The translations under genes were made by a program, and so were the position numbers. 64,000 bases of DNA, taken from Candidatus Dormiibacterota bacterium (GTDB lineage: Bacteria > Chloroflexota > Dormibacteria > Aeolococcales > Aeolococcaceae). Below are positions 3,541 through 28,602 of this stretch, one piece after another. Numbering within the stretch: position 1 is the stretch's first letter; the number at the start of each line of letters is the position of its first letter. The DNA lies in contig CAVPXI010000004.1 in the NCBI GenBank assembly GCA_963709585.1, positions 96,001-160,000 on the forward strand, in the 5' to 3' direction. The notes under the pieces were generated by a model. It was not told the DNA's origin. It did not search any database and saw only the letters and a list, made by a program, of their open reading frames with translations.

Positions 3541-5077
3541 CTACCTCGCCGGTCCGGGCGCGGCTCGCGCCGGGGCAACCTCAGGTCGGCCCGGCTGGTC
3601 GCTCGAGGCGGCGGTCAGGAGCGGCTCGATCGCGGCCACCGCCAGGGTCGCGGTCTCGAGTGCGGCCGCCTCGAAACCACCGGGTGCGAAGCGTTCGCAC
3701 ACCACCACCGCGGCGACCTGGTCGTCACGAACCACCGGGAGCAGCAGCCGCGAGGCCGTCTCGATGTTGGATCGCCGCTGCGCGCGATACGACGCCGCCT
3801 CGGTCACCAGCACCGGCCGCCGGTGGGCGATGACATGCGCGAGCAGGCCGTCGGGCAGGCCGGAGGAGGCGTCACCCCGCGCCGGAAGGAGATACGCGCG
3901 GTCTGCACCGACCTCGTTGGCGAGGCGGGCGAGGCCGCCTTGCACGCCGTGGTCGATTGCGACCGACGCCCACATCGACGGGCTGTGGTGGAGGTGCGCC
4001 CGGTTGACCAGGCCGTTCAGCAGCATCGCCACCAATGCCGCCGCAAGACCGGCGATCACACTCGCGACCCCGATGTCGAGGAGCACGGCGTAGACGCAGA
4101 ACATGACGCACCCGCTCAGCAGTGCGAACTCCAGGTAGTGACGCGGCCCCCCGCCGCCGCGACGCTGGTCCCCGAAGGTCAGGCGCCAGTTCAGCGCGGT
4201 GTTCCAGGCCGCGCTCAGCCCGAAGGCCGGGATGAAGGCGATGAGCGGGTTCAGACGCACAATCCCGGCGAGGATCGCGAGCACAGGTAGGAACACGCAC
4301 AGCCCGCTAAGCCCGACCAGCCCGAACTTCCACACCCGTGCCGATCCCGGGACGTCGAAGAAGAGTGACCTGAGGTGGCGCAGGTAGAGCAGCCCCTGCC
4401 GAGCCGTCGCCTTGCTCACTCCTTCCGCGCGTGCTGCCTGGGTCACCGGGACATCGACGACGCGCAGGGCGGGAACGCAGACGAGGAGCTCGAGGAGGAT
4501 CTTGAATCCCACCGGCCGGAACTCGATGCCGTCGATCAACGCGCGCCAGGCACAGGAAAAAGCCCGAGAGCGGGTCGGAGCTCTGGCGCGCCTCCTTGAA
4601 CAGCAGGCGCGCGACGTCCGTGGCCGCGCGGCTCACCAGACGTCGCACCGGGGTGCCGAGGCCCTCATGGCTCCCGCCTGGCGCGTAGCGGCTCGCGACC
4701 ACGAGATCCGCGCCGCGTTCGGCCTCGCCGAGCAGCACCGGGATGAGCTCGGGCGGATGCTGCAGGTCGGCGTCCATGACGCAGACATACAGCCCGCGAG
4801 CCATGTGCAGCCCGGCGACGACCGCCGTGCTCAGGCCGCCCTTGCGGTCGGCTCCCTGACGGAGGAGGCAGCGGATCGACGGGTTGGACTGGGCCAGGTC
4901 GAGGAGCAGATCCCCGGTGCCGTCGTCGCTGTCGTCGACAAAGCAGATCTCGAACGGAGTGGCGGCGAGTGCGGCGGTGACCCTGCCGACCAGGGGTTGG
5001 ATGTTGTTCGCCTCGTTGCGGGTCGGAACGACGAGGCTGACGACTGGCGCGCCGCCGCGCGGCCGTTCGGGGGTCAC
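3541..5077 (-). CDS. Polyprenol-phosphate mannose synthase-like GT2 fused to GtrA-like and GAF-like domains (frameshift at ~4548)
   Basis: VVPTRNE, FVDDSDDGT, MDADLQHPP, DPLSGFF, then GFKILLE, KFGLVGLSG TM bundle and a GAF-like tail in the next frame; removing A4548 joins the frames. Confidence 0.8.
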
Positions 5078-5144
5078 GGGCAAAGAATAGGCGCGAAACC
5101 CCGCGACGGCGAAACGCCGGGCGATCGGCGGTCGCGCGAATCGC

Positions 5145-5696
5145 TCAGAGGCTGGCCGCGACGAGCAGCGCGATCAGGATGAACAGCAGCACCGCGTCGG
5201 GCAGCATCGCCAGCGCGACCGCGACGAACGGGGTCACGTCGAACACCGAGTACACGGCGAGCGCAGTCAGATAGAGAAACCAGGCGAGCAACGGCAGGGT
5301 CAGCCAGGCGATCAGCAACTCGGCGACGCTGCCAGCGCCGGCGGCGGCTTCGATGACGGAAAGGAGCGCGTAGGCGATCCAGGGGATGAACGTGAACCCG
5401 CTCACCGCCAGGTAGCGGCGCCACCGGCCCGATCGTGCAGACAGTCCCGCCGCGGCATCGATGATCAGCGCGGCGGCGACCCAGTAGACAAGAAAGAGCA
5501 GCGGGAGCAGTAGGGAGGCCACCGTTCCCGCACCGCCCCCGCCCCCGATCTGGTTGGCGAGCAAGCCGAGCGCGAGCGCGATGACCGCGCTGCCCACGAC
5601 CGCGGCAAAGCCGAGCGCGAGGCGCGGCGAACCCGCGAGTGCGGCGAAGGCGCTTCTCGGCCGGACCACGACCCCGATCACCGTCACGGGCACCAC
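5145..5696 (-). CDS. Yip1-family membrane protein
   Basis: RPRSAFAAL start motif, about 5 TM helices. Confidence 0.7.
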   Translation of the reverse strand: MVPVTVIGVVVRPRSAFAALAGSPRLALGFAAVVGSAVIALALGLLANQIGGGGGAGTVASLLLPLLFLVYWVAAALIIDAAAGLSARSGRWRRYLAVSGFTFIPWIAYALLSVIEAAAGAGSVAELLIAWLTLPLLAWFLYLTALAVYSVFDVTPFVAVALAMLPDAVLLFILIALLVAASL

Positions 5697-5751
5697 GGTA
5701 GACGACGCACCCTGGGGTGTGACCCGGGGCGCCGGGAGTAGCGGCGCACCC

Positions 5752-5782
5752 TGTTATACTTGCTTAGGTCAATCTGACCTAA
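5752..5782 (+). promoter_or_regulatory. nadA extended -10 (TGTTATACT) plus palindromic operator TTAGGTCAATCTGACCTAA
   Basis: Perfect 8-3-8 inverted repeat at 5764-5782 over the predicted start site; GT-N7-AC core as in NrtR boxes. Confidence 0.75.
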
Positions 5783-5818
5783 ATCCACAGACCCTGTGCA
5801 AACAGGACAGGTGGCGGG

Positions 5819-6826
5819 GTGATCACAGCAGAGCGGGACGTTGCCACAGAGGACCGGGCCAGGCTTCTGGACCGGATCGAGCGGTTGCGACACGAGCGCA
5901 ACGCGGTGATCCTGGCGCACAACTACCAGCGTCCCGAGGTCCAGGACATCGCCGACTTCGTCGGCGATTCGCTCGGTCTCTCGCAGCAGGCAGCCGCCAC
6001 CGACGCATCGGTGATCGTCTTCTGCGGCGTCCATTTCATGGCCGAGACCGCGGCGATCCTTTCACCCACGAAAACGGTGCTCCTGCCCGATCTCGAGGCA
6101 GGCTGCTCGCTCGCCGCAACCATCGACGCTGACCAGCTGCGCGCGTGGCGGGCTCAGCACCCCGGAGCGGTCGTCGTCTCGTACGTCAACACCACCGCTG
6201 AGGTCAAGGCCCTCTCCGACTACTGCTGCACCTCCTCGAACGCCGAGGCGGTGATTCGATCGATCCCGCCGGACCGGGAGATCCTCTTCTGCCCCGACAT
6301 GTTCCTCGGCGCCCACCTGGAGCGGGTCACCGGTCGCACGTTGCACGTCTGGATGGGGGAGTGCCACGTGCATGCCGGCATCGTCCCCGAGCGGCTCGAC
6401 GCGATGCGCCGCGAGCACCCGGACGCCGAGTTGCTCATCCACCCCGAATGCGGGTGCACGTCATCGACGCTGTATCGCATGTCATCCGGCGACATCACCG
6501 GCCCGGCAACGGTGGTGACCTCCACCGAGGGCATGGTCAGGCGGGCGGCCGATTCCCCCGCGTCGACCTTCATCGTCGCCACCGAGGTCGGCATCCTCCA
6601 CCGCATGCGCGAGCAGTCGCCGGGCAAGCGCTTCCTGGCGGCGTCCGAGGCCGCCGTCTGCCCCTACATGAAGAAGATCACCCTCGAGAAGGTGGCGCGT
6701 TCCCTCGAGGTCATGGGACCGCGAGTGACCGTCGACCCTGCTGTCGCCGCCCAGGCGAGAGGCGCCATCGATCGGATGCTCGCGATCGCCCCGACCGGCG
6801 CTCCCCGGATCTCGACCGCGGCCTGA
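5819..6826 (+). CDS. nadA: Quinolinate synthase
   Basis: ILAHNYQ, GDSL, FCGVHFMAETA, AGCSLA, YVNT, CHVH, HPEC, CPYMK. Confidence 0.97.
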   Translation: MITAERDVATEDRARLLDRIERLRHERNAVILAHNYQRPEVQDIADFVGDSLGLSQQAAATDASVIVFCGVHFMAETAAILSPTKTVLLPDLEAGCSLAATIDADQLRAWRAQHPGAVVVSYVNTTAEVKALSDYCCTSSNAEAVIRSIPPDREILFCPDMFLGAHLERVTGRTLHVWMGECHVHAGIVPERLDAMRREHPDAELLIHPECGCTSSTLYRMSSGDITGPATVVTSTEGMVRRAADSPASTFIVATEVGILHRMREQSPGKRFLAASEAAVCPYMKKITLEKVARSLEVMGPRVTVDPAVAAQARGAIDRMLAIAPTGAPRISTAA

Positions 6827-6932
6827 GCGCCGGCACGTCCACGGGGCTGACGCCTATGTCAGCATCCCTCGCGTGTGCGATTCCCCCGAGGTGCGCGAGT
6901 GCCGAACCGGTCGTGCGAGACCGGCAATGGGC

Positions 6933-6967
6933 AAAAAAAAGACCGGAGGGGGAACCCTCCGGCCTTT
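6933..6967 (-). terminator. Intrinsic terminator on minus strand (may act weakly for nadA on plus)
   Basis: Minus strand reads GGCCGGAGGG-TTCC-CCCTCCGGTC-T8. Confidence 0.85.
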
Positions 6968-7035
6968 CAGGAAGGGAATGAGTTTCACACGTGGGCAGCC
7001 TGGGAACTGCGGGCCTTGACTGTACCCCTCGCCTC
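6933..7035 (-). ncRNA. Candidate ~100-nt small RNA
   Basis: TGC-TATCCT extended -10 at 7046-7038, strong terminator, no minus-strand CDS to explain them. Confidence 0.55.
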
Positions 7036-7075
7036 TCAGGATAGCAGTAAAGGAACCTCCAATTCTTGTAAATAG

Positions 7076-9022
7076 ATGTCAACCGAAGTACTGACCTCAG
7101 AGCCTAGCAAACTCGAGAGCGACGGCGGCGTCCCGCTGGTCCGGGCGGGGCTTCGGGGGTTCCTGGACCTGGGGCGCTTCGATGTCATCGCGGTGATCGC
7201 GCTCGTGCTGGTGGCGTTCGGGCTGCGCGTGGCCAGCCCGATCTTCCCGGACTTTCTGAGCGGGGGCGGGACCGTGAGCGCGCTCGGGGTCGGCTATCCG
7301 ACCACCCGCGGGTCGAGCGCCGAATGCACCCAGGTGCCCGTCGGCCCGCCGGGGGTGGTTGCCGGCGTCAAGGTCAGCCACATCGATGTGAGCGTCTGCG
7401 GCTACGTCTTCGACGAGATCTATTTCCCGGTCGACGCCGCCAAGGACCTGCGCCAACCCGCCGAGTCGTACTTCGACCCCGAGCCGCCGCTGGCCAAGCT
7501 GCTGATGGCCCCACCGATCGCGATTTTCGGCTTCAACAGCTGGACCTGGCGGCTGAGCACGACCCTCTTCGGCAGCCTGCTCGTCGGAGTCATGTACCTG
7601 GTTGCGCTGCGCCTCCGCCGCGATCGCTTCTTCGCCCTCGTCACCGCGGCGCTCATCTGCTTCGACGGGCTCGCGTTCGTCGAATCGCGCACCGGCGTCA
7701 TCGACATCATCGCGATCTTCTTCGTCGCGCTCTTCTATTACGTGTTCCTGCTCCACTGGCAGGCACGGACCCGCGCGCAATGGCGCGCCACCTTGTACGT
7801 GATGGCGGGCATCGCCGGACTCGCGTTTGCGGCAAAGCTCACCGCGCTCGCTCCACTGGTGGTGGCCGCTGGCCTGATCGTGGTGCGCGGGATCGCCCCG
7901 TACCTCGCCGGATTCATTCCCTGGCTGCGCCGCATCGCCGGGCCGGGACGCGCCGAGACGATCATGTGGCGGCACGCTGCGGGCTCACGGGCGATCCTCC
8001 ATTACGTCGCGGGCGGCCTCATAGCGCTCGCCATCTTCGGCGCGTCCTTCTCGCGCTACGAGACGATCCAGCACCAGGACGTGTACTTCTTCACGAGCTG
8101 CAATCCCGCGGTTCCCGGCCTGCCCGGGACGCCGAAGACGCTCAACGTCCCCGTGGTGCACGTCGGATCAGTGCCGGTGCCGAACCCCGTCGAGGCGATC
8201 GACAACATCGTGCAGATCACCGCGGCGTCGCTGCGCTACCACGCCGAGGAATGTCACAGCCATCCGTACTCCTCGCTCTGGCTGACCTGGCCGATCATGG
8301 AGCACCCGGTGCTCTTCTATGCGACGTCCCAGCCGAACAACGGGCCGGTCGCGGAGATCACCGACATGGGCAACCCCGCGCTCTGGTGGCTCGGCATTCT
8401 CGCCCTGCTGTTCTGCGTGTGGCGGATGACACGCGGGCCGAACTGGTGGCGCCTGCTGGTCGCGCTCATCGGGCTCGGCTCGCTCGCCGCGATGATCATC
8501 CTGTACCAGGCGGCCGTCCGTTATCACAACCCAACCAACTTCAACACGTCGTACACCGCGGCGCAGTTCACCGCGTTGTTCCACCAGCAACCGTCGTCAC
8601 AGTACGAGATCGCGCGAACCTCACCCGGGTTCGGTTTTGTCGTCGCTTTCGCGGGCATGTTCGTCTTCGCGGCGCTGGTCACCGTGTCCGCGGTGATCTC
8701 ACGACGATTCGTGCCGGCGTTCATCGTGCTCGGGTACATCGCGTCGTGGATGATGTGGGTGCCTGGCAATGAGCGGCGAGTCCTGTTCTTCTATCACGCG
8801 CTCGGCATCCTGCTGTTCACCGCGCTCGCGCTCGCGTACGCGCTGACCGCGCTCCGCGGCGTCCGAGTGCGCATCGGCGGCCGGCGGATATCGCTGGCGC
8901 CGGTCGCGTACGCCCTGGTCGGCAGCGTGCTCGCCGCATTCATCTTCTTCTACCCGATCTGGACGGCCATGCCGCAGAGCCCGGCCGACCAGCAGATGAG
9001 GATCTGGGTCGACGTCGGGTGA
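7076..9022 (+). CDS. Protein O-mannosyltransferase-like GT-C (PMT/GT39)
   Basis: VFDEIYF, EPPLAKLL, SRT..ID, HPYSS..WP, GNPALWW, FFYH, FFYPIW. Confidence 0.85.
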   Translation: MSTEVLTSEPSKLESDGGVPLVRAGLRGFLDLGRFDVIAVIALVLVAFGLRVASPIFPDFLSGGGTVSALGVGYPTTRGSSAECTQVPVGPPGVVAGVKVSHIDVSVCGYVFDEIYFPVDAAKDLRQPAESYFDPEPPLAKLLMAPPIAIFGFNSWTWRLSTTLFGSLLVGVMYLVALRLRRDRFFALVTAALICFDGLAFVESRTGVIDIIAIFFVALFYYVFLLHWQARTRAQWRATLYVMAGIAGLAFAAKLTALAPLVVAAGLIVVRGIAPYLAGFIPWLRRIAGPGRAETIMWRHAAGSRAILHYVAGGLIALAIFGASFSRYETIQHQDVYFFTSCNPAVPGLPGTPKTLNVPVVHVGSVPVPNPVEAIDNIVQITAASLRYHAEECHSHPYSSLWLTWPIMEHPVLFYATSQPNNGPVAEITDMGNPALWWLGILALLFCVWRMTRGPNWWRLLVALIGLGSLAAMIILYQAAVRYHNPTNFNTSYTAAQFTALFHQQPSSQYEIARTSPGFGFVVAFAGMFVFAALVTVSAVISRRFVPAFIVLGYIASWMMWVPGNERRVLFFYHALGILLFTALALAYALTALRGVRVRIGGRRISLAPVAYALVGSVLAAFIFFYPIWTAMPQSPADQQMRIWVDVG

Positions 9023-28573: not shown

Positions 28574-28602
28574 TGGCATAGGCGCATCGCACGCGCTATC
28601 CT
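28574..28602 (+). promoter_or_regulatory. tRNA promoter TGGCAT-N17-TATCCT
   Basis: 17-nt spacing; -10 ends 11 nt upstream of the tRNA. Confidence 0.55.

Follow-up and report, generated by a model that had tools for sequence, protein, structure and literature searches.

A predicted small RNA gene with an invariant anti-Shine-Dalgarno-like stretch in Dormibacteria

In a stretch of DNA of 64,000 nucleotides (nt) from a Candidatus Dormiibacterota bacterium (assembly GCA_963709585.1, contig CAVPXI010000004.1, positions 96,001 to 160,000; the window in the following) a small RNA (sRNA) gene was predicted on the minus strand. It lies in the 249-nt spacer (6827..7075) separating nadA and a gene for a PMT-like glycosyltransferase, both on the plus strand, and comprises a -10 element, a 5' hairpin, an open C/U-rich linker and an intrinsic terminator (Table 1). 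The source genome has 3.52 Mb in 24 contigs with 66.6% G+C and is 88.8% complete. The locus is very probably an independent, unannotated and non-coding sRNA gene; the gene and its likeliest mode of action, taken as one statement, are rather probable. We regard it as a new sRNA family of a known kind of regulator, which is well supported as a gene and whose function we infer. An earlier note on the window had proposed a minus-strand unit of promoter and terminator at this place. All letters quoted there were found on the minus strand, including TGC-TATCCT, the stem with U8 and UUCCC three times (7006..7002, 6978..6974 and 6954..6950). Furthermore, the position between two plus-strand genes and the description as an unannotated, independent unit were confirmed, the latter by a conserved upstream region, the terminator and changing neighbours.

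The conservation of the locus was examined at the level of the genus first named here as g1, to which the source genome belongs. A 181-nt stretch matched 22 of the 24 other species of the genus with 85-95% identity (BLAST), and the sister family f2 gave no match in 16 genomes. A 1.4-kb alignment of 23 species was divided into 30-nt bins, and the identity to the window was calculated for each. The bin 6980..6951 was 0.997 identical with 28 of 30 columns invariant, and 0.962 was reached in the promoter bin 7070..7041; for the coding DNA of nadA and the glycosyltransferase gene values of mostly 0.75-0.93 were obtained. Just past the U tract (bin 6920..6891) the identity falls to 0.52 and indels are present. 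The run GAAACTCATTCCCTTCCTGAAAGGCCGGAGGG is invariant across all 23 genus sequences, and the 22-nt stretch GAAACUCAUUCCCUUCCUGAAA is identical in 23/23. Across at least 12 genera, the single-stranded stretch with ..CUCAUUCCCUUCCU.. is invariant over 13-22 nt. Indels of 1 and 2 nt were detected in the variable region directly upstream of the invariant stretch. They break an open reading frame (ORF) of 13 codons on the plus strand and one of 44 codons on the minus strand; therefore the element is non-coding.

An exact 31-mer of the conserved core was found in 49 species-representative genomes, all of them metagenome-assembled. The record titles name Dormibacterota, Dormibacteraeota or Dormibacteria in 42 cases, "Chloroflexi bacterium", "Saccharimonadales" and "Acidiferrales" in two cases each and "Candidatus Amunia macphersoniae" in one case. 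Two covariance models were used, R1 built on 49 distinct sequences and R2 built on 64 orthologues. In an even sample of the phylum, R1 matched 3/151 genomes, all within the home family. Across the whole family 86/117 genomes in 12/22 genera were matched: 40/41 in g1, 17/19 in g8, 8/8 in g105, 4/4 each in g107, g111 and g114 and 3/3 in g112, with no match in the 16 genomes of g106. Among the 86 genomes, the matches in G005 and G022 are marginal or of the sibling type described below. The counts for R1, R2, the seed complement, the two-component marker and the 13-mer include the genomes G194, G203 and G247, which are flagged as unpublished; the same applies to G193 in the two-component-marker count and to G323 and G337 in the R2 class count. 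When flagged genomes are left out, the family count for R1 is 83/114, and the other claims are independent of them.

With R2, weaker relatives were detected outside family f1. In a sample of the class the model matched 25/33 genomes in f1, 11/11 in f5, 23/43 in f3 and 16/48 in f4, and 0/15 in f2. Inspection of 20 weaker matches from f3-f5 revealed the forms ..AUCCCUUCCUU.. / ..ACUCAAUCCCUUCCUUGGAAAAG in f5 and ..UUCCCCUUCCUU.. / ..CGCUUCCCCUUCCUUGAAAGG in f3, each followed by a terminator. The core common to both is CCCUUCC(U). In f4 the matches form a mixed set, part of which may be plain terminators. The 13-mer TCATTCCCTTCCT is present in 91/117 genomes of the family, and its reversed control in 0/117.

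The structure was investigated by covariation, counted on 64 orthologues from at least 9 genera that were re-aligned with R1. Standard pairs occupy 96.8% of the cells, compared with 84.9 +/- 0.6% in shuffles, and 0/500 shuffles were as high. When the 3' partner was shifted by 1-3 columns as a control, 33-66% of the cells were paired. Changes on both sides were found in 12/18 pairs, namely all 5 of the 5' hairpin, its closing pair and 6/12 pairs of the terminator. Covariation among relatives had been suggested earlier as a check, and compensatory changes are indeed present in both helices. The position of the hairpin holds unrelated stems in different genera (GGCGAC-GATG-GTCGCC, GCGGG-UGUGUU-CCCGC, CCCGG-UUU-CCGGG). 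Likewise, the terminator stem GGCCGGAGGG/CCCUCCGGUC, which has 10 base pairs (bp), is GC-rich and contains one G-U pair, is replaced by GACCCGGGGC/GCCCCGGGUC or GACCGGGAGG/CCUCCCGGUC in other genera. By pairing onto the U tract, GAAA (6968..6965) can lengthen this stem, to 10-14 bp overall.

The strand can be derived from the same alignment. In 49 sequences a pair of the terminator is G-U, and in 12 a pair of the hairpin is U-G. Read on the plus strand, both would be mismatches; as the U tract, too, exists on the minus strand only, the strand is fixed as minus. The RNA of about 80 nt folds with -31.4 kcal/mol and z = -4.07, a value equalled by 0/200 shuffles (RNAfold); for a version of 122 nt z = -1.49 was calculated. 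The predicted fold consists of the hairpin, an open linker with the seed and the terminator, in this order. The invariant stretch is unpaired in the consensus fold, and in the single-sequence centroid just three bases are paired, at its 5' end.

According to a different explanation no RNA gene exists: the hairpin would be a bidirectional nadA terminator, and the conserved DNA before it would serve the glycosyltransferase gene of the plus strand as promoter or 5' leader, with a leader ORF of 13 codons from the ATG complementary to CAU. The hairpin does sit 3' of nadA, and AGGAAGGGAATG on the plus strand looks like a Shine-Dalgarno (SD) sequence with a start codon which opens this ORF. However, the plus strand reads CCUUUC after the stem instead of a U tract, the 1- and 2-nt indels of several species stand right after the putative start codon, and the G-U pairs become A-C mismatches. 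On the plus strand the fold has z = -0.30, no better than shuffles. Moreover, the unit adjoins FGGY kinase, ROK or PNP_UDP genes in place of nadA, as well as a different upstream gene. The earlier note had itself named a simple bidirectional nadA terminator as the reading to adopt if conservation ended with the terminator; it extends well past it. This explanation is very improbable and appears largely refuted by the comparative data.

For the sRNA gene the promoter was deduced from comparison with tRNA genes. Upstream of 49 tRNA genes of the genome a -10 of the type (G)G-TAnnnT was observed (examples are TACACT, TACAGT, TAGAAT, TATCAT and TATCCT), without recognisable -35. In the alignment of the sRNA locus the T, A and T of GG-TACAGT are the sole invariant positions of the 5' half. 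A TAnnnT hexamer lies 38-54 nt upstream of CCCTTCC in 64/64 orthologues and occurs in 9 variants: TACAGT in 44, TATCGT and TAGAGT in 5 each, TACATT in 3, TAGATT and TATAGT in 2 each, and TAAAGT, TAATCT and TATGGT in one each. Fixed T, A and T with a free middle is the way in which a -10 evolves and not an RNA motif. Thus, the start is placed at about 7012 and the RNA has about 80 nt, and not about 100 nt as assumed before. The unit has its own predicted -10, which stands at a near-constant distance from the seed and matches the tRNA consensus.

The earlier note had placed the promoter at TGC-TATCCT and had pointed out that the same hexamer serves a tRNA. The latter is correct, as TATCCT precedes tRNA-Gly and tRNA-Met genes, with the tRNA-Gly copy at 28597..28602, 12 nt upstream of the gene. 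It is conceivable that the sRNA is real but started at TGC-TATCCT (about 7031) with a length of about 100 nt, TACAGT being a conserved RNA motif. TATCCT is a valid -10 of this genome and is kept throughout the genus. Beyond the genus, however, no TAnnnT hexamer is found at its position, which reads TTTCGG, TTTCCC, ATTCGA or similar in an alignment of 49 sequences, and the stretch between the two hexamers is unconserved between genera. TACAGT varies in the manner of a -10, as described, and in family f3 the RNA would start just before the seed. A start at TGC-TATCCT in place of TACAGT is hence improbable, although a second, g1-specific start from TATCCT may be used. TTTACA-N17-TACTGC was considered as -35/-10 and dropped, since the tRNA promoters give TAnnnT and the TACAGT hexamer is invariant. 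A simple scan for promoters and terminators listed neither the hairpin nor a sigma-70 promoter at the locus; such a scan is uninformative for this organism because its promoters have a weak -35.

Sequence data from metatranscriptomes were searched for the locus. The 181-nt stretch is partly present in 20 of the 24 runs listed, 9 of these being recorded as RNA. From four runs (X2, X3, X6, X7) 11 contig pieces with a depth of 2-10 were obtained; these contigs carry no strand, ends or level. In X2 the summed depth of these strandless contigs is highest over the invariant core (31.9, compared with about 5 beside it). Some observations weigh against the gene as proposed here. The covariation alignment was fitted to the model and is biased toward structure. 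The -35 region is atypical, as the proximal of the repeat boxes upstream ends 21 nt before the -10. Three contigs extend into neighbouring genes or intergenic DNA, as would be seen with DNA carry-over or read-through.

Table 1 Features of the predicted sRNA gene and its neighbours (positions of the window)
Feature	Position	Strand	Remarks
Phased direct repeats, TTnACA type, four	7046..7082	-	candidate sites of an OmpR/PhoB-family response regulator, predicted from the sequence
Boxes of the repeats	TTGACA 7082..7077; TTTACA 7072..7067; TTGGAG 7062..7057 (degenerate); TTTACT 7051..7046	-	period 10-11 nt
TGC-TATCCT	7046..7038	-	valid TAnnnT hexamer, limited to genus g1
Conserved -10, TACAGT (TAnnnT, preceded by GG)	7024..7019	-	T, A and T invariant
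Predicted sRNA, about 80 nt	~7012..6933	-	putative start 7 nt past the -10 (~7010..7014); end inside U8
5' hairpin GCAGUU-CCCA-GGCUGC	6995..7010	-	sequence drifts, pairing kept
Invariant single strand GAAACUCAUUCCCUUCCUGAAA, 22 nt	6965..6986	-	presumed seed, anti-SD-like
Core UCAUUCCCUUCCU of the invariant single strand	6981..6969	-	kept in divergent genera as GAAGCUCAUUCCCUUCCUUGGAAAG
Intrinsic terminator	6933..6968	-	stem 6964..6955 / 6950..6941, tetraloop UUCC 6954..6951, U8 6940..6933
nadA	5819..6826	+	Pfam NadA, E = 5e-118
PMT-like glycosyltransferase gene	7076..9022	+	ATG 7076..7078

Three UUCCC motifs had been put forward as pairing sites. Of these, CAUUCCCUUCCU in the middle is both invariant and free of pairing; the two others are not conserved as such. 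In the hairpin most species have GCAGCC-CGCA-GGCUGC, and in the window two U's of the motif pair with G's in the stem; the loop varies (CGCA, GAAG, CCCA etc.). The motif at the terminator is made up of the tetraloop UUCC and the first C of the stem, and the loop reads UUCG, CUCG or CUUG in other genera.

The invariant stretch is C/U-rich, open and complementary to AGGAAGGGAAUGAG. Of 14 positions compared with what we take to be the 3' tail of 16S rRNA, 10 agree; the 16S gene is absent from this assembly. On the simplest reading the RNA acts in trans, and a seed of this kind would most likely pair with ribosome-binding sites of the type GGAAGGG(A)AUG, which are purine-rich, and would block the initiation of translation. 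As no match to the profiles of Hfq (PF17209), CsrA or ProQ was detected in the 88.8%-complete genome, pairing would proceed without these proteins. Whether the RNA acts by masking ribosome-binding sites is judged to be an evenly balanced question.

Several results speak against this mode of action. For 2295 start regions, which were crudely called, the contiguous-pairing score of the seed was compared with that of 30 shuffled seeds, and pairing was no better: 16 regions scored at least 9 (shuffled 10.1 +/- 5.5) and 49 scored at least 8 (shuffled 38.9 +/- 17). Duplex energies, calculated both over the genome and for the 2295 start regions, likewise singled out no target, and the best genome-wide duplexes, antisense strands of the RNA genes themselves aside, have no consistent context. 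In the genome GGAGG is the dominant SD sequence with 313 counts, followed by GAAGG with 80 and GGAAG with 43, so that the seed pairs perfectly only with a minority of the SD variants. Finally, 22 invariant nt exceed the typical need of a seed, which leaves room for a protein partner. The best-looking start regions belong to an ECF sigma factor, a GH3/NagZ-like enzyme and an integrase (named by the look of the sequence, not by family search). The start regions of the genes that diverge from the unit lack complementarity to the seed. The seed complement AGGAAGGGAATGAG (at most 1 mismatch), present in 113/117 genomes, was also examined as a source of targets. At 13 of 20 inspected loci it carries AGGAAGGGGATGAG, which reads antisense to Leu-Ile-Pro-Phe-Leu codons of rpoB and other genes. 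There the sense strand is seed-like, and these loci were rejected as targets.

The RNA could be real and act by binding a protein instead of by pairing with mRNAs, with the 22-nt stretch resembling the 16S tail as a docking or decoy site. Possible partners would be a ribosomal protein, a maturation factor or a nuclease which recognises C/U-rich single strands or the 16S tail. A stretch longer than usual pairing seeds, the lack of mRNA targets enriched over shuffled seeds and the agreement with the presumed 16S 3' end fit this idea. On the other hand, each RNA has one copy of the motif, unlike the many repeated sites of known protein sponges, and the other families keep just CCCUUCC(U), which has the size of a seed. 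No candidate partner emerged from the analysis, and CsrA, Hfq and ProQ gave no profile match. We consider protein binding a minor possibility.

A lead to the regulation of the sRNA gene is given by the phased TTnACA boxes upstream of the -10. Boxes of the form TT(T/C/A)ACA were also observed in other genera, for example TTTACA-gccc-TTTACA-gttc-TTCACT-gggcg-TTTACA in g8 and TTAACA-acaa-TTCACG-gaacc-TGAACA in g107. In f5 and f3, too, phased boxes are present upstream of the RNA. TT(A/T/C)ACA appears to resemble the PhoP box of Bacillus subtilis. The pattern TT[N]ACA-N4-5-TT[ACT]ACA has 3 copies in the 3.5-Mb genome and 0 for the reversed control. One of these box pairs belongs to the sRNA promoter, one lies inside an ORF, and one is intergenic before a two-component operon. 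This operon encodes, in this order, a membrane protein of 92 amino acids, a regulator (Response_reg + Trans_reg_C) and a HisKA/HATPase kinase. Its upstream region in genome G000 (locus L173) consists of TTCACA-N5-TTCACA, 23 nt, the -10 TACCGT, the SD sequence AAGGAG and ATG. Exactly TTCACA-N5-TTCACA was found at 26 of 29 readable g1 loci (a 30th locus is cut); at L183, L191 and L192 the first box is the variant TTCATA or CTCACA. At most of 20 operon loci from other genera TTCACA-N5-yyCACA occurs.

From these boxes it is proposed that a regulator of the OmpR/PhoB family would bind the phased repeats upstream of the -10 and drive transcription of the RNA. The two-component operon would regulate itself via the same box pair, and the sRNA would be part of its regulon. 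That an OmpR-type regulator drives the sRNA via the predicted TTnACA sites is plausible but slightly doubtful. It has to be held against this proposal that the box pattern was derived from the sRNA promoter itself. Furthermore, the regulator is frameshifted in the source assembly; it is intact with 229-233 amino acids in three relatives. Genus g106 carries the operon marker in 12/16 genomes and the RNA in 0/16 (R1). Genera with and without the marker mostly coincide with those with and without the RNA, the exceptions being g106 and g102 (marker 2/2, RNA 0/2). This co-occurrence is weak evidence because related genomes are not independent. The regulator scored below all NCBIfam equivalog cut-offs (MtrA 226.8 bits vs 300, PhoB 222.9 vs 296.2). 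In the source genome the operon, with TTCACA-N5-TTCACA ahead of it, is located outside the window on contig C15 at about 3620..5840 of the minus strand, and the frameshift concerns one base within the winged-helix domain, which can be an assembly error or a real lesion.

sRNAs controlled by two-component systems are known from enterobacteria with OmrA/OmrB and MicF (EnvZ-OmpR) and MgrR (PhoQ-PhoP). The likeness consists in phased direct repeats before the promoter, of the kind bound by these regulators, and in a two-component operon of the same genome with the same boxes at its own promoter; it does not include a sequence relationship.

In a more far-reaching proposal, a class-wide RNA family mimicking the 16S 3' tail would be the output of one OmpR-type two-component system and would compete with ribosomes for a subset of SD sequences or decoy a factor that acts on the 16S tail. 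This is speculative and, in our opinion, unlikely as a whole. If true, a kinase signal would reprogramme translation on a global scale although the lineage has no Hfq, ProQ or CsrA, and the minimal f3 form, which consists of the seed and terminator and little more, would be among the smallest regulatory RNAs known.

Regarding known RNA families, a search of the window with Rfam 15 yielded no family at gathering level except one tRNA; the matches listed at E <= 10 were all sub-threshold and based on the terminator. The best of them, in a search with 801 nt, was RF00519 (suhB/MmgR) with 23.7 bits compared with a gathering score of 41 (E = 0.017), a score due mostly to the terminator and C/U run. 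The corresponding alphaR8 family of Alphaproteobacteria (MmgR of Sinorhizobium meliloti, SisA-D of Caulobacter crescentus) is closest in design. Its reported hallmark is a 10-mer that is unpaired, bears an anti-SD signature and lies upstream of the terminator; sibling copies (MmgR, SisA-D) exist there as they do here (PMC12559287). The motif of the window is CAUUCCCUUCCU and not the RF00519 consensus UUUCCUCCCU, so that composition and position are alike and the sequence is different. The present RNA belongs to Dormibacteria, and alphaR8 is Hfq-associated whereas no match to the Hfq profile was found here. As the score stays below the threshold and the motif, taxonomic context and Hfq context all differ, the RNA is not a member of alphaR8 and the likeness is one of design only.

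A C-rich single-stranded motif is also common to the present RNA and to RsaE/RoxS and RNAIII-type RNAs of Firmicutes and 6C RNA of Actinobacteria. In these, C-rich single-stranded motifs pair with G-rich ribosome-binding sites without strict need for Hfq. They carry several UCCC or C-rich motifs in hairpin loops, compared with one motif in a linear linker here. Even at E <= 10 no Rfam family of the 6C or RsaE/RoxS type was obtained.

Permafrost, peat and desert soils are rich in Dormibacteria, which were formerly called candidate phylum AD3 or Dormibacterota. To our knowledge, the lineage has no cultured member. A full-text literature search found no paper linking Dormibacteria with small RNAs, and a search on sRNAs and anti-SD motifs in Chloroflexi gave nothing relevant among the matches listed. 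The RNA is thus apparently the first candidate of a regulatory RNA for Dormibacteria. For it a gene model with promoter, covarying structure, invariant seed, terminator, sibling copies and candidate regulator is offered. The family can be annotated in hundreds of metagenome-assembled genomes and might serve as a read-out of a signalling pathway in stranded metatranscriptomes of soil. It adds an independent case of the recurring design with an anti-SD-like seed, in a lineage seemingly without the usual RNA chaperones.

At least 2 copies of the 13-mer TCATTCCCTTCCT were counted in 31/117 genomes of the family, including 22/42 g1 genomes (source genome counted). Some genomes would accordingly carry one or more sibling RNAs with the same seed and different hairpin and flanks. 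In the source genome a sibling is located outside the window at C13:101283-101386 (+). Its seed AACUCAUUCCCUUCCUGAAG is identical and is followed by a different hairpin without U tract. Loci of the sibling type were found in other genomes of the genus (L024-L027, L123, L128); these counterparts share the seed, have the hairpin GGCCCyUGGCAUCGCGCCrGGGGuC without U tract and unrelated flanks, and carry a -10-like hexamer 30-65 nt upstream.

A further group of model matches, termed class C (C6:224180-224294 on the minus strand of the source genome, L125-L127 and L129), was identified as the groEL 3' end with its terminator. These are false positives driven by UUCCUGAAAGG plus a hairpin. The groEL 3' end followed by CAACUGAUCCGAUUCCUGAAAGG and a terminator scores 41 bits and resembles the 3' half of the sRNA. 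This lineage may prefer the succession of UUCCUGAAAGG, hairpin and U tract as a context for terminators.

The neighbouring genes of the unit were compared between genomes. On its 3' side nadA converges on it in genus g1 and in one g114 genome, an FGGY kinase gene at loci of g6, g8, g105, g107 and g108, and a gene for a ROK protein or a PNP_UDP phosphorylase in two more g114 genomes. The divergent upstream neighbour encodes a PMT-like protein in the source genome and in one g114 genome, and an unrelated protein of about 190 amino acids with an RRRRRR tail and without Pfam match in 7 other genomes examined. The neighbours change while the unit's own upstream region and terminator stay; therefore the unit moves as a self-contained piece.

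The protein of about 190 amino acids (L078, L079, L112, L113, L115, L119, L122) starts with MPxRHPxLYDxxRWR and has two apparent hydrophobic stretches before the arginine tail. Its gene is divergent from the sRNA, has a -10 of TATGCT or TATCCT just 12-20 nt before the ATG and lacks an SD sequence. The ATG of the PMT-like gene (7076, +) likewise has no SD sequence at a usable distance, the sole purine run being AAAGGAA about 25 nt upstream (7040..7078). Since the TTGACA box that comes first in the sRNA promoter overlaps this start codon, the two divergent units may share control DNA.

A second conserved block was observed immediately 3' of the nadA stop codon (6833..6875, both strands). It contains a hairpin at 6846..6863, GCUGAC-GCCUAU-GUCAGC on the plus strand, with GGG/CCC flanks and without U tract. 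The bin 6860..6831 is near-invariant in the genus (identity 0.896, 20/30 columns invariant), and the spacer past the block is variable. The block may be a terminator of nadA without U tail or a protein-binding site. Outside the window, a repeat of about 150 nt (..CAGTTGCAGCCGATTCCAACTTGCGGGGATCAG..TTTGCAGGGACTAGTACTCATTCCCTGATTGATG..) was detected at four places after GGTTCGAGTCCTGTCTCCCCGA, which is similar to a tRNA 3' end (C13 at about 56335, 134719 and 198706; C14 at about 71537). They have the appearance of mobile-element copies or of integration sites linked to tRNAs.

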